64,000 nucleotides of DNA from a virus. The position numbers and the translations under genes were made by a program. Below are positions 41 to 33,392 of the stretch, one piece after another. The notes beneath the pieces were generated by a model, which ran no database searches, was not told the origin of the DNA, and was given only the letters and a program-made list of their open reading frames with translations. Position 1 is the first letter of the stretch. Each line of letters starts with the position of its first letter. Location of the stretch: the UHGV virus genome UHGV-1497419. One strand, written 5' to 3'.

Positions 41-179
41 CTGCACAATTCTAAAATGATTTTTCTTGCCCGACCTGAGCGGGGTCTGCACGTTTTGAAA
101 ATGATTTTTCTATCCGGCGATGAGATTTTTGGGGATATCTGTACAGACCCCTACAGATACCTGCACAAATTGAAAATGA
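41..179. repeat. three direct copies of a ~19-bp element CTGCAC-N5-(T/G)AAAATGA at 41-59, 86-104 and 161-179
   Basis: Read directly from the sequence; non-coding DNA downstream of the last leftward gene; the overlapping 61-aa plus ORF (14-199) is probably spurious. Confidence 0.5.
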
Positions 180-180
180 A

Positions 181-229
181 AAAGGCCGCCTTACCTTAAA
201 TTTTTCAATGGGTTAGGCAGCCTTCTTAG
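181..229 (-). terminator. putative terminator hairpin (AAGGCCGCC / GGCAGCCTT, long loop) followed by a T-run on the minus strand
   Basis: Inverted repeat with an A-run on the plus strand immediately downstream of the 258-1037 gene; the 25-nt loop is atypically long. Confidence 0.3.
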
Positions 230-2575: not shown

Positions 2576-2599
2576 TGAAAAAGGCTCCCTAAGGAGCCT
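2576..2599 (-). terminator. rho-independent terminator (GGCTCC-ctaa-GGAGCC plus T-run on minus strand)
   Basis: Perfect 6-7 bp GC-rich stem with a tetraloop; the A-run on the plus strand gives a U-run after the stem on minus-strand RNA. Confidence 0.55.
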
Positions 2600-3085: not shown

Positions 3086-3781
3086 TCAATGTTTAACTAA
3101 CATGGTTTTAATGTGTGGAAGGATTCTGTTCACCTTCTGCACATTCTTCTCTGTATCTTCTATAAAGCATACTATATTAAAGTAAGGCAGAATGCAAGAC
3201 TGAATCATCCTCACTTTCAAACTTTCTGCACTTATAGAGTTAGCCCCAAAACCACGCATAAAAAGCATGTAGTCATGCTCTGTGTTATGCCTTAAAAACA
3301 TCTCAGTAGGTATTCTCTGAGATTCACCTCTCGCTGTCAAGAGTCCAACAGCAGCATGATTAGCAATTGCATCAATGATATTGAAAACATACGTTGGCTT
3401 TGCTCTTACAGAATCAAGAAGATTGGTATACTGTGAGAATGAACCATCAGTCAATTCCGTTGAGCAATCTTCGTGATTAAAATTTGTAAGAACACCATCA
3501 ATATCTGCTAAGATGAGATTCCCTTTTTCTACAAGGTCTTTATTGACTATGACTAAGCTATCACGACTTACACCTATAGTTTGTCCAGTCTCTTTATCTA
3601 CAACATTCACAATTGGCTCTGATGTGTGAAACTCTTCTAGTGAACATACAACTTCTCTTGCAGTGTCTTCAAAATCCCTACACTGTTCTGGAGTCCATAC
3701 ACAGGAATCAAGACCTAACTCATGAGGATGTAAGTCATAAGCATGACACAGTACTTCATCAGACTTTCTTAATTTTTTCAT
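3086..3781 (-). CDS. HAD-superfamily phosphatase (possible nucleotidase)
   Basis: HAD motif I-like ILADIDGVLT; T5-like phages encode a HAD deoxynucleotidase, so this is a plausible analogue (inference). Confidence 0.4.
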   Translation of the reverse strand: MKKLRKSDEVLCHAYDLHPHELGLDSCVWTPEQCRDFEDTAREVVCSLEEFHTSEPIVNVVDKETGQTIGVSRDSLVIVNKDLVEKGNLILADIDGVLTNFNHEDCSTELTDGSFSQYTNLLDSVRAKPTYVFNIIDAIANHAAVGLLTARGESQRIPTEMFLRHNTEHDYMLFMRGFGANSISAESLKVRMIQSCILPYFNIVCFIEDTEKNVQKVNRILPHIKTMLVKH

Positions 3782-4307
3782 GATTTACCTTAGAAATGTT
3801 TGTTGCAAATTCACATTGAGCAATTACTTTCATGTTGTTATAGACATCTTGAGAATATTTCTTAGCTTTAGGGATTCTGTACGAATACCCAGCATTATAT
3901 GATGCTAAAACTTTTTGTAAAGTCTTCTTTGACTTTGGCTGACCATGCACCTTTGTCCAAAACTCAAGCTCTTTGTGAGTTTCCTTCGCAGCATAGTCAA
4001 AGTCTTTTAAGAGTTTCTTTTTAGCCACATTAGGACTAATTTTGTTACGCTTTACAACAGTCTTCAAGTGATTCTGGAAAATACCATAATCATGTGTCTT
4101 TTTATTCTCTACCTTCAGACCTAACTCTGACTCTTGTAAGGCTATAGCAGCTAGAGTGATACCCCAACCTTTACCCATGTTATTCTCACCATACTGGTAA
4201 GCTTTTAACATGTTTACTTTTTGGCTAATTGATAGCTCTGGGCAGTCAACTGCATAAGATAAGTGTGCTGTAAACATTAAGCACAAACCTAGAATCAATT
4301 TCTTCAT
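3759..4307 (-). CDS. lytic transglycosylase with N-terminal signal peptide (candidate endolysin)
   Basis: Signal peptide MKKLILGLCLMFTAHLSYA; SLT-like core AAIALQESELG...YGIFQ; next to the spanin pair. Confidence 0.5.
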   Translation of the reverse strand: MKKLILGLCLMFTAHLSYAVDCPELSISQKVNMLKAYQYGENNMGKGWGITLAAIALQESELGLKVENKKTHDYGIFQNHLKTVVKRNKISPNVAKKKLLKDFDYAAKETHKELEFWTKVHGQPKSKKTLQKVLASYNAGYSYRIPKAKKYSQDVYNNMKVIAQCEFATNISKVNHEKIKKV

Positions 4308-4368
4308 TGGTTCTCCTGTTTAGTTTATCGTGACAACAATTATACAGTACTCTGCACAAAACACAAAT

Positions 4369-4394
4369 AAAAAAGGCCGCCGAAGCAGCCTTTT
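4369..4394 (-). terminator. terminator hairpin (GGCUGC-UUCG-GCGGCC on minus RNA) flanked by T-runs on both strands
   Basis: Inverted repeat with a UUCG tetraloop and one G-U pair, immediately after the rIIB-like stop. Confidence 0.45.
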
Positions 4395-4407: not shown

Positions 4408-5517
4408 TTAGATTTCACGTTTACGTTGGGAGATAAGTTCTCCAGCAGTACCAACGATGACATGTAAAGCTTCAGTCTTGCCATCCCATGCTTTCAGCAC
4501 TTTACGTTGATTATCAACGATTGCTGCAACTTCATAACGAGACGAGCGCATCTTCATATCGTTGTAATCAGTTGGTACGGATACAACGTCTCGTGGATGG
4601 ACACGAACCTTCAGAATTGTATCACCTGAGAAACAACGAACATAATCCCAAGCACCAACATGAAGACCTTGAGAGCAAGTCACGTTACGGTTATTATCAA
4701 CCATCCAACGTGGCATTTCTACAATGTTACCCAAATCATTAGGTACTCTGTAGGTGTGGGAGTCAACCAGCTTGCCTTCACGAGTAGATACTTTCTTCCA
4801 ACCAATGATGTAGCCTTCTTCATCAATTTCAACATCAAGGTGAGATACGAAGCCCCAAAGTTGTTCTACGGAATCTTTAGATGGGTTTTCCATCAGTTTT
4901 TCGAAGAACATCACAAGACGTTCGAAACCTTTATCTCCAGTCTTCATCATGTGAAGAATACGGTCAACCAGAGTAGAACGCATCTCAACAGCACCGTAGA
5001 ATAACTTGTCACCTTTGATTGTGATAGCACCCTGAGTGAAGTTTTCGATAGACTTACGAATGTTCATCAGTTCAAAGGCTTTCTTGAACTCACCTTTCAC
5101 AACATGAACTACAATCTCTTGATAGTTCGGATGAGTAGATTCAACAATTTCAGACTCTGAACCGTAAGTCATAATTACAGAGTCGCCAGTAATCATGTAC
5201 TCAATCTTGTCATCTTTCTGCATAGCTTCGTGCAGTTTATTTACCGGAGCTTTCTGTACATCCTCTTTAACAGCCTTTTTAACTGGCTTGTCAGCTTTCT
5301 TTTTAAAGGTCTTAGCAACTTGCTTCAGAGTCTTCGTAGCTGGTGTAGAAGTCGCCTTCTTATTCCCTTTTAAGGTTGCTTCATGACGCTCTACGGCACG
5401 ACCGACTGAACGGGTTGAGGTGTTAAATTTCTGTGCAATAGCGGTTTTAGTCAGCTTGCCCTCTTTAACCAGTTTGTAAATTTCTGCGTCAATCTGTGCT
5501 TTAGTTTTAGTAGTCAT
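4408..5517 (-). CDS. rIIB: rIIB-like protein (putative), N-terminal HTH-like segment
   Basis: Sits immediately downstream of the rIIA-like gene as in T4; similar size class; no diagnostic motif recognised, so the call is positional. Confidence 0.35.
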   Translation of the reverse strand: MTTKTKAQIDAEIYKLVKEGKLTKTAIAQKFNTSTRSVGRAVERHEATLKGNKKATSTPATKTLKQVAKTFKKKADKPVKKAVKEDVQKAPVNKLHEAMQKDDKIEYMITGDSVIMTYGSESEIVESTHPNYQEIVVHVVKGEFKKAFELMNIRKSIENFTQGAITIKGDKLFYGAVEMRSTLVDRILHMMKTGDKGFERLVMFFEKLMENPSKDSVEQLWGFVSHLDVEIDEEGYIIGWKKVSTREGKLVDSHTYRVPNDLGNIVEMPRWMVDNNRNVTCSQGLHVGAWDYVRCFSGDTILKVRVHPRDVVSVPTDYNDMKMRSSRYEVAAIVDNQRKVLKAWDGKTEALHVIVGTAGELISQRKREI

Positions 5518-5596: not shown

Positions 5597-7963
5597 TTAA
5601 TCGTAAATTGTAGTCCCTTCTGGAACACATTTTACATCAAAGCCTAAGAACTTACTCACTTCGATGGGTGACACTTTATTCCAATCTAAATGAGAAAGCA
5701 AGAAGTTTTCTTGTTTTCTTTTTGAAAGGTAGTTTGTCACCTTAATGACCATACGGTCACCAGCTTTCTTAATTTTCTTGTACAGCTTTGTATCATTGTC
5801 AAGGCATTCTTTCAAAGTTTGCAATCTACTAACAGTGTAAGTGTATGCAAACGGTGCAGCAACGTATTGGATTTTACCGAACATTGCCTCTACAGCCTCT
5901 TCATTACCTTCTAGGAAGATAGTTTTGTTTGTATCCCGTGAATAGCAATAACCACGAGAAATCTTCCTATTATTGAATGTAAAGTTTCTGGCAATAATCC
6001 AGCTACTTGTAAGGTCAAGAACACCATTCATGTAGATGCGTGTCATATACCTGTTATGATTAATCCAATGAACATCAGTTAAGCTGTCGTTCAAGAGCTT
6101 CTCATCTACTTCAATCCAGTCTTCTGGTATCTTTTTCCAATTTGCTTTTCGGAAAACATAGACTGTCTTTCCAATAACATTAGCAACTGACTTAGCTACA
6201 TCTTCTGGGGATGAGCAAAAACATTCACCATCAACTGTGTCACCAATTGCCTTAATGTAAAGCTGAGGTTCTTCAATTGTGTCTAAGTCCTCTGACACCT
6301 CTTTGTAGGAGGCTACACCTTCTGCTGGAACAGCTTTCCAGAGTTTTACAACACCTCTTACAGCTTCTTTACGCTGGTAATGGTGTTCCTTATCAGACAT
6401 TTTCACAATCTTTAACAAGCTTTTATCAAGTTTGTGTAGATTGATTAAATCATCTAACTCTTTTTCAGTCGAGAATACAAACACAATACCATTATATCTG
6501 TGAAACAGACTGGACTCACTGGCGTAGTCTCGACATGCACCACGCAGAATCTGATTGCGTCCTACAGTCTTCTCAGTTCCGTTTTTATTGCGACGGTCAT
6601 TAATCACGAACAAAAACTGTTCAATTTGGCTTTTACGCATTGCACCAAAGATATTGAACATACTTGCCTCTTGAGTGTAGGAAAGTGCTGTTGCACGAAT
6701 CTTACTCTCTAAAGAGTTGAACTTAACATAAGCAACTGGGTTATAAAGATAATCTACTTTAGGAATGTTGTTTCCGTTCCTATCAACCTTAATATTACCT
6801 TTACCGTCACGTTCATAAATAACTGAGCCGTCTTCTGCGTAGATAATCCCACGACGAATGTTTAGCAATTCTTCTTCCAGAGAATCAAGCTTAACACCGC
6901 CCCACTCTAGCTTTGGACACACAGCATTAAACATCTCTCGTGAGTTCAAACGTAACTCAGCATAAGCCTGTGCAGCATCCATGAGTGTAGGTTGGTTATT
7001 AACTTTCTTGATAACATCCTTTGTAATGGCTTCAGTTATCTTTTTGGTAGCCTCAATGATGACATTTTTTGTCGTATCATTCATCTGCAATGCTTCACGA
7101 GAAGCTGCAATAGCAACTGAACCAATAGGCATGTAGATGTTTACAAGGTCTACGCTCCTACGGAAAAATTCTGGCAATACTTTGAAGAAATCATCACCAA
7201 GTAATGCTTCCATGTTAACAGGGTAGGCAATGTTACCCATCACCACATTAAACTCTGTCCTGTTATCACTAGAACGCCAGCTTAGCTTATGAATCATGGC
7301 ATCATAAACACCCTCTTCACGGGCAATGACGTTCATATCTGCTAATACATCGTTGTACACAATATTACTTTCTGGTTTTACAGCAAAGTATGAGTATACA
7401 TTACCAGCTTCTTCAAAGAACTTTGAGATACGGTGGTCAGCAACTGCCACACGTACAGCTAAACCATTAGGTTCTTTTGTTGGGTTAGTTGTCAGCTTAG
7501 TTACTTGAGGAATACCATTCTCAAGATAAACAGAGTACTTATTAACAACACCATCAACATAGCTAGATACTGTGAATGACTGAGCAATTGCAAATGGTGA
7601 CTTTGAGCCGATACCCATTGCACCAATGTAATCATTAGAGTCATTCTTCGTAGAAGCTCCGTAGTTCAGATACAAACTCATTACTTTGTCATGGGTTAAA
7701 CCAGTTCCAAAGTCACGGACTTCAAAGTAAGGCTCAAACCGAGTAGGTAAATGCACATGGAACGGGATGTTCTCTTTTCCAGCTTCTTTCTGAGCATCTA
7801 CTGCGTTACATGACAGTTCACGAATAACTGCCCTTTCTTTAAATGTGTATACACCAGAACTCAAAAGGCTGAACATTTCAGGTGTCATTGTAATCTGTGC
7901 TTGAGACGTCTCTAAAGAAGTTGAACTCTTAATCACTTCTGCGTGGTCGTTTACCATGCGCAT
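5597..7963 (-). CDS. rIIA: rIIA-like protein with GHKL/HATPase_c ATPase domain
   Basis: N-box E..NAVDA (ELSCNAVDA), G1 box DFGTGL and G2 box GAMGIGSKS in the N-terminal third; 788 aa, comparable to T4 rIIA. Confidence 0.55.
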   Translation of the reverse strand: MRMVNDHAEVIKSSTSLETSQAQITMTPEMFSLLSSGVYTFKERAVIRELSCNAVDAQKEAGKENIPFHVHLPTRFEPYFEVRDFGTGLTHDKVMSLYLNYGASTKNDSNDYIGAMGIGSKSPFAIAQSFTVSSYVDGVVNKYSVYLENGIPQVTKLTTNPTKEPNGLAVRVAVADHRISKFFEEAGNVYSYFAVKPESNIVYNDVLADMNVIAREEGVYDAMIHKLSWRSSDNRTEFNVVMGNIAYPVNMEALLGDDFFKVLPEFFRRSVDLVNIYMPIGSVAIAASREALQMNDTTKNVIIEATKKITEAITKDVIKKVNNQPTLMDAAQAYAELRLNSREMFNAVCPKLEWGGVKLDSLEEELLNIRRGIIYAEDGSVIYERDGKGNIKVDRNGNNIPKVDYLYNPVAYVKFNSLESKIRATALSYTQEASMFNIFGAMRKSQIEQFLFVINDRRNKNGTEKTVGRNQILRGACRDYASESSLFHRYNGIVFVFSTEKELDDLINLHKLDKSLLKIVKMSDKEHHYQRKEAVRGVVKLWKAVPAEGVASYKEVSEDLDTIEEPQLYIKAIGDTVDGECFCSSPEDVAKSVANVIGKTVYVFRKANWKKIPEDWIEVDEKLLNDSLTDVHWINHNRYMTRIYMNGVLDLTSSWIIARNFTFNNRKISRGYCYSRDTNKTIFLEGNEEAVEAMFGKIQYVAAPFAYTYTVSRLQTLKECLDNDTKLYKKIKKAGDRMVIKVTNYLSKRKQENFLLSHLDWNKVSPIEVSKFLGFDVKCVPEGTTIYD

Positions 7964-7991
7964 AATACTTTCCTCTTAGTTTACTGTTAAA

Positions 7992-8168
7992 TCACTTATT
8001 AAACATTTTACCAGAACCACCACAAATAGGGCAACAACCTGCTCTTGTATACCCTTCTCCGTTACAGTAGTCACACTTTTTGTGTTCTGCAAAGTACTTA
8101 CAAAGAAGGCAAACAAATATTGCTACACTACCAAGTGACAGTAAAATTTCTATCCAATACGCTTGCAT
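7992..8168 (-). CDS. small membrane protein with two DnaJ-type CxxCxGxG zinc-finger repeats (58 aa; below the ORF-track length cut-off)
   Basis: Hand translation: MQAYWIEILLSLGSVAIFVCLLCKYFAEHKKCDYCNGEGYTRAGCCPICGGSGKMFNK; ATG at 8168, stop at 7992-7994. Confidence 0.3.
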   Translation of the reverse strand: MQAYWIEILLSLGSVAIFVCLLCKYFAEHKKCDYCNGEGYTRAGCCPICGGSGKMFNK

Positions 8169-8485
8169 GACTCACCTCTCATATTCTTGTAAAGGATAAA
8201 GCTTCTGTCATGGACGATACTTGTAGACACTGCAAAGTTACTTTCAAGCATCTGTTTGTTTGGATTGTAGAAGCTTTCTTTAAACTCGTCAAGTGCAAAT
8301 TGGTGATGTTGCGGAAGACCTTTTACACAGACCTTTATTGTGATTGCTGCTGCGACCTTGCCAGTCAGTTCTTCTTGAGCTGCTACCAAGATTTTGTTAA
8401 GGAACTTATGACCATCTTCAGGCTTCTTGATGTTCTCCCAACGTTCTTCTAAGACAATGTTGATGTTCATCTCTTTGATTTTCAT
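8150..8485 (-). CDS. hypothetical protein
   Basis: 111-aa ORF between the NAMPT-like gene and the rIIA-like gene. Confidence 0.35.
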   Translation of the reverse strand: MKIKEMNINIVLEERWENIKKPEDGHKFLNKILVAAQEELTGKVAAAITIKVCVKGLPQHHQFALDEFKESFYNPNKQMLESNFAVSTSIVHDRSFILYKNMRGESCKRIG

Positions 8486-12098: not shown

Positions 12099-12410
12099 TT
12101 ACTGAACTAATTTCAATACTTTGAAGAAACCTTCTTCACCAATTGCATCATAGACCTTTTCAGTTGGCTTGATAAGGTTGTTCAAGCAGATTATTTTCTT
12201 ACGTTTCTTATCATAAGAAAGTTTAAGCTGCTTCAGCTCTTTATCATCTTCAGGGTGCTCATTGTACATCTTTACAGCCTCTTTGAAGCTAATGTAACCG
12301 CCGCCAAGAGTAAGGAAACCTGTGCCACAATAATGTGAATTGTGCTTATCAGCCATAAACTGACACAGAATAGAAATCTGAATTTTACGGGTGTTATAAA
12401 TCTTTTCCAT
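12099..12410 (-). CDS. hypothetical protein
   Basis: 103-aa ORF. Confidence 0.35.
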   Translation of the reverse strand: MEKIYNTRKIQISILCQFMADKHNSHYCGTGFLTLGGGYISFKEAVKMYNEHPEDDKELKQLKLSYDKKRKKIICLNNLIKPTEKVYDAIGEEGFFKVLKLVQ

Positions 12411-12421
12411 TTTGGTTATCC

Positions 12422-12694
12422 TTACTTGTTGCGTTTACGGTTACGAGCTTTCTTAGCTGCTCGTTTAATAGCTGCTGCACCAGACGGACGGTGGGCTTGC
12501 TTCTTACCACCTTTACCACGTCCAACATGAATGTAAGGCTGCTGTTCAATCTGGCTTGCAAGAACCTGTGCAACTGCTGAAGCATCTACACCGACCTGCT
12601 TACCCGTCATAGAAACAATTGCTGCTGCTTTTGCCAGTGCAGCTAAGAAACCAGCTTTCATGTTACTAAAAATTCCCATTTTAATCTCTCTCAT
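12422..12694 (-). CDS. hypothetical protein with a strongly basic C-terminal tail
   Basis: 90-aa ORF ending KRAAKKARNRKRNK. Confidence 0.35.
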   Translation of the reverse strand: MREIKMGIFSNMKAGFLAALAKAAAIVSMTGKQVGVDASAVAQVLASQIEQQPYIHVGRGKGGKKQAHRPSGAAAIKRAAKKARNRKRNK

Positions 12695-12949
12695 TTAAAG
12701 TTTAATACAGAACTTATTAAGTTCTTCTTCAGTAACTGTGACAACTTTATCATCAACACGTAAGTTTGTCGCGTAAAAATTTGAGAAATGTGCTTTGTAT
12801 TTTACTTTAAATACTCCAGCATCCTCAATACATTTCAATGCTTCCATACCAGTGGAGTCAAACAGACTTTTAGTATAGACTTTCCACTCTTCAATGGTTT
12901 CTGGATTTACTTTGTAGCTACCAAATAGTGACATGTTACAGTACGACAT
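12695..12949 (-). CDS. hypothetical protein (start uncertain; track ORF extends to 13096 and overlaps nrdG)
   Basis: ATG at 12949 avoids overlap with the nrdG 3' end; upstream in-frame starts also exist. Confidence 0.3.
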   Translation of the reverse strand: MSYCNMSLFGSYKVNPETIEEWKVYTKSLFDSTGMEALKCIEDAGVFKVKYKAHFSNFYATNLRVDDKVVTVTEEELNKFCIKL

Positions 12950-12977
12950 AACAAACTCACCGCGTTTGAATCCACCG

Positions 12978-13463
12978 CTACTCTGCTCTCCATTGACAGT
13001 CACCTTGCCAGCCATATTCTTTTCTCCACAAGTTTTGGTTGTCTGAACCACGATATGGTTTATTCGTTGGTTTAGAAGCATCATACTTACCATCAATCAC
13101 CACGTCAACATATTTCATCACATCTAAGTGGATTTTTTCGTGCAGTTGAAAACCTGTCCAAAGCCATATAGACTTTTCTGGATAAACAGTTTTAATACGC
13201 TTGCATATGTTGGTGACCTCTTGAATATTTCTATCATCCAGAGGCTCCCCACCAAGTATTGACAGCCCACTGATAGCGTTATCATTCATTAGCTGAATGA
13301 TTCCGTAAAGGTTTGCATAAGTAAATACTTTACCAGCATTAAACTTCCAAGACTCCCTGTTAAAGCAGCCTTCGCAGTGATGCTTACAACCAGCTACGAA
13401 GAGGCTTACACGAACCCCTTCACCATTAGCTGTGTCAAATGGCCTAATCTCCATGTAATTCAT
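12978..13463 (-). CDS. nrdG: anaerobic ribonucleotide reductase activating protein (radical SAM)
   Basis: CKHHCEGC = CxxxCxxC radical-SAM cluster motif near the N-terminus; C-terminal RGSDNQ resembles T4 NrdG; adjacent region contains nrdD. Confidence 0.8.
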   Translation of the reverse strand: MNYMEIRPFDTANGEGVRVSLFVAGCKHHCEGCFNRESWKFNAGKVFTYANLYGIIQLMNDNAISGLSILGGEPLDDRNIQEVTNICKRIKTVYPEKSIWLWTGFQLHEKIHLDVMKYVDVVIDGKYDASKPTNKPYRGSDNQNLWRKEYGWQGDCQWRAE

Positions 13464-13522
13464 CTAGTTACCTCACCAATAAATATAAACGTTCTTTAAA
13501 CCTTTTCTTCGAATTGTTTTAC

Positions 13523-13918
13523 TCATTCAAACACCACCTGACAAGGAACCTGTTTAGTAATAAATTCTTCACAGTGCTCTTTAATGAAGTTTTGTAATGG
13601 TACACAATCTTGTGCGCAAGTCATTAGCATAATGTACTCTGGATTCATGATGTTTTCAAGACTGTAGAAGACAACATCATCAGATAGTTCGTGACCATCT
13701 TCTTCAGACCAAGTTCCAGTGACTACAGCTAATTTGTCAAGCAATTCATTAGGCAATGCTACACCATCTTCTACAGAATCACTTAGAACATTGTCGCCGA
13801 TATACAATGTGAAGACCGTGTGGAATGTTGAGTATCTTACGTGATTCTTTTCACAAGAGCCACACTCTGAGGCATAATCTTTAATCCACTCTAACTGTTT
13901 TTGACTCAACTTAATCAT
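13523..13918 (-). CDS. hypothetical protein
   Basis: 131-aa cysteine-containing ORF. Confidence 0.35.
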   Translation of the reverse strand: MIKLSQKQLEWIKDYASECGSCEKNHVRYSTFHTVFTLYIGDNVLSDSVEDGVALPNELLDKLAVVTGTWSEEDGHELSDDVVFYSLENIMNPEYIMLMTCAQDCVPLQNFIKEHCEEFITKQVPCQVVFE

Positions 13919-14115
13919 AATTTCACCTTAGTTGGTAATGCACTGAATGCTATGACTAACCCTAAAAATGGTTTGAAGCATGACCATAAATCCATCTGAC
14001 CATGATATGAGAAACTCCATTGTGGGTCTGAAAAACCCCATACCATAACACTAACCCCAAAGAAGAAGACTAGAATATGGAGTATGTATATCAACGCTTT
14101 TGATATCTTAAACAT
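13915..14115 (-). CDS. hypothetical small membrane protein
   Basis: 66 aa with a long hydrophobic segment ALIYILHILVFFFGVSVMVWGF. Confidence 0.3.
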   Translation of the reverse strand: MFKISKALIYILHILVFFFGVSVMVWGFSDPQWSFSYHGQMDLWSCFKPFLGLVIAFSALPTKVKL

Positions 14116-32937: not shown

Positions 32938-33174
32938 ATGTGGAAATCAGTAATTGTGCTTGGTGTTATTTTTCTATCTGGCTGCAACCCTTCTTATGAA
33001 GATAAAAATGCTTCTTATAGTCTCCCACCAGAGATGCAAGATTGTAAAGTCTATAAGCTGAATGGGGATGCAATAAGCACAGATATTGTTGTTGTAAGAT
33101 GTCCAAACTCTCAAACGACAACATCTTATCGTTATGGTAAAAATAGTCAATCACACACTACTGTTATTGAGTGA
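32938..33174 (+). CDS. putative lipoprotein
   Basis: Signal peptide MWKSVIVLGVIFLSGC with lipobox LSGC. Confidence 0.45.
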   Translation: MWKSVIVLGVIFLSGCNPSYEDKNASYSLPPEMQDCKVYKLNGDAISTDIVVVRCPNSQTTTSYRYGKNSQSHTTVIE

Positions 33175-33185
33175 GGTTTTTCAAG

Positions 33186-33392
33186 ATGCAAGTCTTAGTA
33201 AACTATATCTACCGTTATGATACTGTTCACTCCACTACAAACATAGCTCAACGTAACCCAATCGTACCGCGAGAAGGTGAATTGGTTCGCATTGAGGGTT
33301 GGACTTACACTGTGGAAAACATCATTCATAAGTTTGATGTTGCTGGTGATGTTCAAGTTATTGACGTAGAGATTGGTGGTAAGAGAAAATGA
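33186..33392 (+). CDS. hypothetical protein
   Basis: ATG at 33186 preceded by GAGG. Confidence 0.35.
   Translation: MQVLVNYIYRYDTVHSTTNIAQRNPIVPREGELVRIEGWTYTVENIIHKFDVAGDVQVIDVEIGGKRK

Follow-up and report, generated by a model that had tools for sequence, protein, structure and literature searches.

We examined a 64,000-nucleotide stretch of the virus genome UHGV-1497419 (hereafter the window), at the left edge of which an array of three short direct repeats follows the hairpin at the end of a leftward operon. The first 6 kb of the window are 93–96% identical to many Felix O1-type myoviruses, including FSL SP-107, VpaE1_ev035 and Si3, and by this sequence identity the window is that of a Felixounavirus. 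All genes near the array lie on the minus strand, and the array is therefore to be read on that strand. The operon comprises rIIA, rIIB, a weakly matching SLT-like gene, a polynucleotide kinase gene and several small genes, all on the minus strand, with a macro-domain protein gene in last place (Table 1). The window carries a rare allele of this last gene, found at more than 90% amino acid identity in only 13 phage records; in the other felixounaviruses sampled, the macro-domain protein is approximately 40–45% identical to that of the window.

The first-pass annotation had placed a hairpin at 181–229, downstream of the leftward operon, and both its existence and its location were borne out. 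Just past the stop codon of the macro-domain gene, whose end is at 258, the hairpin begins at 227, with the repeats following; it folds on the minus strand (227–179), and its U-tail (~178–168) extends into repeat copy A. The Felix O1 homolog of this hairpin is called by a terminator scan, and the published terminators of that phage (Whichard et al. 2010, Table 2; PMC3185647) include t13 (7947–7994) and t2 (3499–3531). Hairpins 179–227 and 4371–4394 of the window occupy the same positions as these two, after the macro-domain gene and after rIIB, and both likewise have stable stems and T-rich tails. The hairpin at 179–227 is almost certainly the intrinsic (Rho-independent) terminator that ends the rIIA–rIIB–macro-domain operon, homologous to Felix O1 t13. 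Other terminators of the operon share the tail GCCTTTTTCATTT. A third terminator lies inside the operon (2582–2599, minus strand, AGGCTCCTTAGGGAGCCT); its tail, TTTTCATTTC, is the same as that of the hairpin at 179–227 and leads directly into the ribosome-binding site and start codon of the next gene.

Downstream of the terminator, the repeats take the form TCATTTTC-N5-GTGCAG on the minus strand. Read directly on the plus strand, the copies are CTGCACAATTCTAAAATGA (41–59), CTGCACGTTTTGAAAATGA (86–104) and CTGCACAAATTGAAAATGA (161–179), each conforming to CTGCAC-N5/6-AAAATGA, so that the three direct copies of ~19 bp reported earlier stand at their exact positions. A search of the 64 kb for CTGCAC-N6-AAAATGA with no more than one mismatch returned three matches, exactly the array copies, against a chance expectation of 0.24, and none of 100 shuffled sequences gave three; the element is a genuinely iterated one, not a chance resemblance. 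The GGGGTC and GACCCC sequences described between the copies were located, also by direct reading, at 81–86 and 146–151. All copies share one orientation, with no inverted copy of the unit in the array. Positions 41–79 and 86–124 are 74% identical over 39 nt, a sequence likeness showing that whole units of ~45 bp were duplicated.

From 39 distinct true units we built a position matrix, with a listing threshold of 12 bits. The unit consensus on the minus strand is S-W5-TCATTTY-N2-A-N3-GTGCA-K, asymmetric and ~24 bp long, within which CATTT and GTGCA are invariant among the units and lie 12 bp apart, about one helical turn. The tract before TCATTT is AAAAA, AAAAT, AAATT, ATTTT or TTTTT, in all 39 units of the AnTm type and never with a TpA step.

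Table 1. Features of the window at the repeat array and in the leftward operon
Feature	Position	Strand	Evidence and remarks
Edge of C-rich homopyrimidine tract	1–17	minus	Comparison with Si3, VpaE1_ev035, Felix O1 and Moogle
Repeat copy TCATTTTAGAATTGTGCAG	41–59	minus	Matrix 39.2 bits; corresponds to copy D, the final array unit
Spacer	60–85		Minus-strand sequence ACCCCGCTCAGGTCGGGCAAGAAAAA; its GGTCGGGCAAGAAAAA part resembles GGTCTGGCAAGAAAAA of Erwinia phages
Repeat copy TCATTTTCAAAACGTGCAG	86–104	minus	Matrix 29.8 bits; corresponds to copy C of four-copy phages
Spacer, lineage-specific	105–160		Holds GACCCC and an imperfect palindrome (125–143 / 152–170)
Repeat copy A, TCATTTTCAATTTGTGCAG	161–179	minus	Matrix 40.5 bits; extended unit ~156–185 overlaps terminator tail
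Predicted intrinsic (Rho-independent) terminator hairpin	227–179	minus	Fold −23.3 kcal/mol, z = −4.3; tail UUUUUCAUUUUC
Macro-domain protein gene, last in leftward operon	258–1037	minus	Pfam Macro E = 3e-7; ‘phosphatase’ in relatives’ annotation
Weak SLT-like gene	3759–4307	minus	Pfam SLT E = 9e-4, misses the Pfam cut-off
Promoter-like segment fused to T-tail of rIIB terminator	4370–4339	minus	Direct reading
Predicted intrinsic terminator after rIIB, homologous to Felix O1 t2	4394–4371	minus	Terminator scan; −14.7 kcal/mol, z = −4.1
rIIB	4408–5517	minus	Leftward operon
rIIA	5597–7963	minus	Leftward operon

Conservation in related phages, a check that the first-pass annotation had itself proposed, was found throughout the subfamily: each of the four Ounavirinae genera (Felixounavirus, Mooglevirus, Suspvirus and Kolesnikvirus) has the array. 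Four copies, spaced 73/39/45 bp from start to start, are found in Felix O1, in KhF1, in ASO1A and in the majority of felixounavirus contigs. The window lineage has three, spaced 75/45 bp, being without the second copy and having a different first spacer; in an alignment of 28 distinct loci, Felix O1 has another spacer and an additional repeat copy where the window has 105–160. Citrobacter phage Moogle has four copies (75/41/45 bp), and the region of Escherichia phage SUSP1 is 97% identical to the Moogle type. In two Erwinia-type Kolesnikvirus phages, four copies of TCATTTTCAATTTGTGCAT are spaced 37/37/39 bp, directly past the terminator of the macro-domain gene. Spacing is fixed within each lineage. 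The macro-domain protein of the Erwinia phages is only ~33% identical to that of the window; for Moogle, the protein identity is 64%. Between Felix O1 and the Moogle type, the 19-bp cores are 83–91% identical, the spacers 50–83% and the macro-domain gene 76% at the DNA level, with 91% for a 68-nt block further downstream. The array and this following block are better conserved than the genes around them.

By the unit matrix, the three array copies score 30–40 bits, and the site ranking after them in the window reaches 13 bits. Of the closest relative, 24.5 kb lie beyond what the window covers, and there no site outside the array exceeds 12 bits. Scanning IMG/VR with the pattern returned one matching locus per felixounavirus contig. 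TGTGCAG and related words elsewhere in the window lie nearly all inside genes, not beside promoters. The array is unique in the ~88-kb genome, and the earlier suggestion of a motif reused around the genome fell away, with nothing above background in the window or in those 24.5 kb.

A coding reading of the array was rejected. From one lineage to another, the distance between units changes by 2, 4 or 6 bp, including non-multiples of three, so the array is not coding; stops occur in all frames of the conserved block, and no reading frame is kept among relatives, in agreement with the noncoding character first proposed for this stretch. Older annotations place Felix O1 ORF31–34, FO1a gp14 and Mordin gp014 over the array and the C-rich tract, on both strands, and in the retrieved records the small open reading frames (ORFs) run at 195–516 (L174), 318–530 (L176) and 700–888 (L175). 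Such small ORFs over the array, including the plus-strand ORF at 14–199 of the window, are most likely not genes.

The array belongs to a noncoding region of ~0.5 kb, one of only two large ones in the ~88-kb genome; the window holds its start, the promoter-distal part, and the rest lies left of position 1. In Si3 and VpaE1_ev035, the gap from the macro-domain gene to the next gene is ~470–510 bp. Its order on the gene strand is terminator, array, C-rich tract, conserved block, variable stretch, A/T-rich segment and promoter. The C-rich tract is, in relatives, a perfect homopyrimidine mirror repeat, CCCCTCTCCCCCTC-TTA-CTCCCCCTCTCCCC, seen whole at ~993–1023 and ~6016–5986 (minus strand) in two retrieved relative loci. 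This mirror repeat follows the array in Felixounavirus, is shorter in Moogle-type phages and is a plain C-rich tract in the Erwinia phages. The 68-nt conserved block reads CTCTTAC...AAAAGTCAAGAGAAAAATTTGTAG...AATAATTCTTGA. At ~170–360 bp past the array units there is a good sigma-70 promoter, TTGACA-17-TACTAT, which has an A/T-rich element upstream and opens a series of small early genes, each with its own promoter and terminator. Mirror repeats of this kind can form triplex (H-) DNA. In VpaE1_ev035, the closest relative, a 16-bp palindrome, CTGTCTCTAGAGACAG, lies inside the C-rich tract flanked by duplicated CTCTTACTCCCCCT (retrieved locus ~3000–2950), and looks like a small insertion with target duplication.

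The pattern of conservation suggests that the units are probably a protein-binding array that acts at the level of DNA. As the AnTm tract is accepted in either orientation, it points to readout of duplex DNA shape and not to an RNA signal, and the two invariant blocks, one helical turn apart, may be the trace of a protein contacting one face of the helix. The repeats could instead act as RNA, as read-through or antisense sites ahead of a C-rich Rho-loading tract or within a middle-time noncoding RNA, which we consider improbable. The region is transcribed, with a maximum unlike that of its neighbours: in the reverse-transcription polymerase chain reaction (RT-PCR) series for Felix O1, ‘ORF14’ peaks at 25 min and the flanking ORF13 and ORF16 at 5 min (PMC3185647), and ‘ORF14’ overlies the array when placed via FO1a gp14 and AF320576 ORF33. 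The sense strand past the array is locally strongly richer in C than in G, as for a Rho-loading site; the Erwinia-phage units and a site at 3640–3611 match antisense sigma-70 promoters; and TTGACT-17-TAAGAG is kept on the antisense strand of the 68-nt block in both the Felix and Moogle types. However, the interchange of A5 and T5 forms of the tract would be senseless for a single-stranded RNA signal, and the array folds with z-scores of only −2.0 and −0.7, its structures lying in the non-conserved spacers of the 28 aligned loci. Rfam covariance models, run on both strands of the entire gap, matched nothing up to E = 1. The Felix type, in which the spacer would be ~25 nt, does not retain the antisense promoter geometry seen in the Erwinia phages, and TAAGAG is without the key final T of a −10 element.

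In Erwinia phage Ep030 (retrieved locus 3339–3470 and 3611–3640), the antisense arrangements are TTGCCA-17-TAAAAT in the units and TTGACG-18-TATACT downstream, none of which is kept in the Felix type. The units of the same phage contain DnaA-box matches at 8 of 9 positions, cTATGCACA and TTATGCACg, which the Felix type likewise does not keep.

As the best overall explanation, we tentatively propose a putative protein-binding array at the boundary between a terminator and an early promoter. The hairpin at 179–227, as an intrinsic terminator, almost certainly ends the rIIA–rIIB–macro-domain operon. Beyond it, the three units of one orientation (four in most relatives), unique in the genome and spaced in a lineage-fixed manner in all four genera, would act as double-stranded DNA and dock one sequence-specific binding protein, of the phage or of the host. 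In the last and least certain step, the bound array would form a nucleoprotein boundary that separates the terminator from the strong early promoter ~200–350 bp further on. Such a boundary would set the amount and the timing of upstream-operon transcription that crosses the C-rich tract and reaches the small early genes of the terminal cluster; alternatively, the array would control the firing of the early promoter itself. A link to transcription receives some support from the setting of the array, between a terminator and the TTGACA-17-TACTAT promoter, and from that of its only look-alike, another terminator–promoter junction with TGTGCAG kept inside the promoter spacer. The 25-min peak of ‘ORF14’, against 5 min for the ORFs on either side, lends some further support. 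The boundary role as such is a possibility that we regard as doubtful.

Several points weigh against the proposed binding array. The 39 units are related to one another and not independent, which limits the argument from the AnTm tract. The RT-PCR was not strand-specific, and ‘ORF14’ was placed by inference from a sister record. No binding protein was identified, and no test ties the one annotated HTH_3 regulator to the site. Direct repeats 37–75 bp apart and ~170–360 bp upstream of a promoter are a non-standard operator geometry, and a regulator often has more sites in a genome, of which none exist here. A role in recombination, considered below, could also add to the persistence of the repeats. 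To our knowledge, and comparing only by eye as a source of leads, none of the binding sites of DnaA, IHF, Fis, Fur, CRP, LexA, OmpR, PhoB and Lrp, nor the RfaH ops element, Ter or the F-plasmid RepE iteron, fits the invariant positions. Across the first 45 kb of the Si3 genome, the part examined, the only transcriptional regulator annotated is a 99-amino acid HTH_3 protein (gp083; retrieved locus 32953–33252); a 471-amino acid Si3 protein annotated as RNA-binding (DUF2828 and DUF7788) is encoded beside the tRNA cluster (retrieved locus 573–1988).

The look-alike of the array is the module after rIIB, which the first-pass annotation had described as a related module at 4352–4394 overlapped on the minus strand by a TTTGTG-N17-TATAAT arrangement. 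That arrangement is present upstream of the SLT-like gene, with a weak −35 element (TTTGTG, 4367–4362), TGTGCAG (4358–4352), a TG (4346–4345) and TATAAT (4344–4339); its weak −35 element is the reason that it escaped the simple promoter scan. The whole cassette, TGTGCAG included, is kept in Felixounavirus and Moogle-type phages, with adjacent spacer bases that vary, and 4339–4394 is predicted to be a terminator fused to an extended −10 promoter. Its likeness to the array held up, 4343–4381 being 77% identical over 39 nt to copy A with its terminator, but its standing as a further copy of the element did not: the module is terminator t2 plus a promoter, and has in common with the unit only the T-rich tail and TGTGCAG. 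The segment at 4352–4370 has two mismatches to the 19-nt pattern, a level at which there are 9 matches against 4.7 expected, chance coding-region matches included, and it falls below the 12-bit matrix threshold that the array copies exceed at 30–40 bits. In Si3, TGTATAGG follows copy A at the distance where the 4339–4370 cassette has TGTATAAT. We read the array locus and 4339–4394 as apparently paralogous terminator–promoter cassettes, the module being only a distant relative of the motif, and the array units are probably derived from a cassette like 4339–4394, through tandem amplification of its tail and spacer. The rIIB cassette is absent in the Erwinia phages, where a comparison of GTGCAG and GTGCAT for covariation was tried.

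That the array is itself a set of tandem sigma-70 early promoters, like T7 A1–A3, we judge very unlikely. The array does stand ahead of the early-gene cluster, TA frequently follows GTGCAGG, and TGTATAGG after copy A of Si3 is at the position of TGTATAAT in the 4339–4370 cassette. Against this, the promoter scan calls none in the array of Felix O1 or VpaE1_ev035 or in positions 1–260 of the window, and the would-be −10 element is not conserved across units and genera (ACCCCG, TAGGGG, TCTAGA, GGAACT). The real promoter, with its A/T-rich upstream element, lies ~200 bp further on.

The same likeness, together with the tail GCCTTTTTCATTT common to other terminators of the operon and the duplication of whole units noted above (41–79 and 86–124), would also be expected if the repeats had no function of their own and were a duplicated terminator tail or decayed promoter cassette persisting as homology patches for recombination. 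DNA homology to Felix O1 resumes exactly at the repeat at 86–104, the second plus-strand copy, and the switch between two unrelated alleles of the macro-domain gene falls exactly at a repeat unit; the repeats therefore also act as recombination joints, and from the alignments the junction of module exchange lies in the array. However, neutral duplicates would have lost the invariant pentamers, copy number and spacing where the adjacent protein has diverged to 64% (Moogle) or ~33% (Erwinia) identity, and it is the spacers that diverge and not the cores. A joint role would not by itself account for pentamers that stay invariant, and spacing that stays fixed, from genus to genus, and we give the reading without function slightly less weight than that of an RNA element.

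Among the alternatives to the proposed binding array, the strongest is an iteron set of the phage replication origin, in which an initiator would bind the three or four repeats and the homopurine–homopyrimidine mirror repeat, A/T-rich block and strong promoter would help to open and prime the DNA; we hold it to be unlikely. The first-pass annotation had raised an iteron array. At least three direct repeats of ~17–22 bp in one orientation, unique in the replicon, are indeed what was found: three or four copies of ~19–24 bp in a site that occurs once per genome and is better conserved than its flanking genes in four genera. The site lies in one of the two large noncoding regions, beside a G+C-rich tract, an A-rich block and a promoter, and no origin is reported for the subfamily in the genome papers examined. 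Classical iterons, however, are phased at ~22 bp, close to two helical turns, whereas the spacings here are 37, 39, 41, 45, 73 and 75 bp. GC skew is positive to the left and to the right of the array, although this criterion carries little weight in phages. Over the 16–24 kb examined, the 15 least stable 50-bp windows all lie outside the gap and away from the array, the lowest beside the terminal repeat. The neighbouring genes encode the macro-domain protein and small proteins without a Pfam match, with no initiator-like gene annotated nearby, and no initiator is annotated in Si3 1–45000, the part that holds the replication genes. Origins of the T7 type are promoter-driven. The replication proteins of Felix O1 are T7-like (PMC3185647). 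With spacing, unwinding-prone DNA, skew and initiator gene all failing to lend it support, membership of the array in the iteron class is not supported.

A second noncoding region, of 1.6 kb, lies at 12306–13927 in Felix O1 (~6900–8400 in a second relative) and holds the ~600-bp terminal repeat. Over 20 YTGTTAR repeats, all on one strand, occur in it along with repeats of the CTATAG type, and it includes the least stable DNA of the 16–24 kb examined. For packaging or origin functions, it is a stronger candidate than the array.

Proximity of the array to a genome terminus, also raised in the first-pass annotation, found no support, and the chance that the array is itself the terminus or packaging site is negligible. 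A few database records (KhF1, TH10 and an FSL SP-107 contig) do end near the array, and some records contain the region twice. The terminal repeat determined experimentally for UAB_Phi87 (608 bp; 590 nt in the version in the supplement text) is, however, a different, TGTTAAG-rich sequence, absent from the window, which lies ~4.6–7 kb beyond the array in relatives (7.0 kb in VpaE1_ev035; in Felix O1, terminal repeat at 12779–13341 and array at ~7989–8165). Where a record has a terminal duplication, it is that other sequence that stands at the ends. The UAB_Phi87 record itself opens within a tRNA gene, and the ends of records can therefore not be equated with physical ends. The KhF1 record begins (1–160) with an N-rich, low-quality duplicate of the noncoding region, which makes the region seem doubled; this duplicate is an assembly artefact and not a terminal repeat. 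Two further records, GU169904.1 (Staphylococcus phage SA1, 147 kb) and MG065664.1 (Campylobacter phage A132), contain felixounavirus sequence at 85–94% identity, which suggests contaminated or chimeric submissions.

Position and conservation pattern would also fit a far more speculative role, to which we assign very little probability: that the array, mirror repeat and conserved block form a checkpoint for DNA entry. The ~5–7.6 kb from the array to the right genome end, which comprise the small early genes and the terminal repeat, would enter the cell first, and the bound array would hold the remaining genome outside until early proteins act, as in T5. This would amount to a transfer resembling the first step of T5 in a myovirus with a terminal repeat of only 0.6 kb.

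Salmonella typing and biocontrol make wide use of Felix O1 and its relatives, and the Felix O1 genome paper states that the replication origin and the timing of early, middle and late transcription were unsolved (PMC3185647). Three or four short units with two invariant pentamers offer a defined, mutable target with which to find the binding protein and to test whether the site controls early-gene read-through, replication start or DNA entry. The overlying small genes in several records call for caution in annotation. A full-text literature search did not find the motif, the genome papers examined leave the array, mirror repeat and conserved block undescribed, and no felixounavirus transcriptome was found in the literature. 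The terminators are already published; what is added here is an undescribed direct-repeat array, a putative set of binding sites in a phage control region.

Compared with known systems, the closest precedent is the set of Felix O1 hairpins t13 and t2 themselves, although the paper on that phage lists hairpins only and describes neither the array after t13 nor the promoter fused to t2. The iterons of lambda ori, P1 oriR and RK2 oriV resemble the array in being three to five direct repeats of ~17–22 bp, unique, and set beside A/T-rich and G+C-rich tracts and a promoter. They are spaced at ~22 bp, whereas the array is spaced at 37–75 bp and is without an adjacent initiator, an unwinding-prone segment or a skew switch. 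The noncoding repeats of T5 first-step transfer, with their injection stop signal (Davison, bioRxiv 10.1101/866236), share with the array region a large noncoding stretch a few kb from the genome end, bounding poorly conserved small early genes, and repeats that are better conserved than the genes. In T5, however, the terminal repeats are long, and there are large inverted repeats together with DnaA boxes in pairs, whereas the phages examined here have a terminal repeat of ~600 bp, direct units, and DnaA-box matches of 8/9 in the Erwinia phages only and ~6/9 in the Felix type; two-step DNA entry, as in T5, is not known from the Ounavirinae. The T4-type cassettes that Arbiol et al. are said to have described in 2010 consist of a stem-loop fused to an early sigma-70 promoter at gene boundaries, and reportedly act as joints for modular exchange. 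The array units differ from them in having neither a stem-loop nor a usable −10 element. As in those cassettes, the module switch falls here at a repeat unit, and the same form of stem-loop plus promoter is shown by the 4339–4394 module and by 57-bp repeats in the early cluster of Felix O1.

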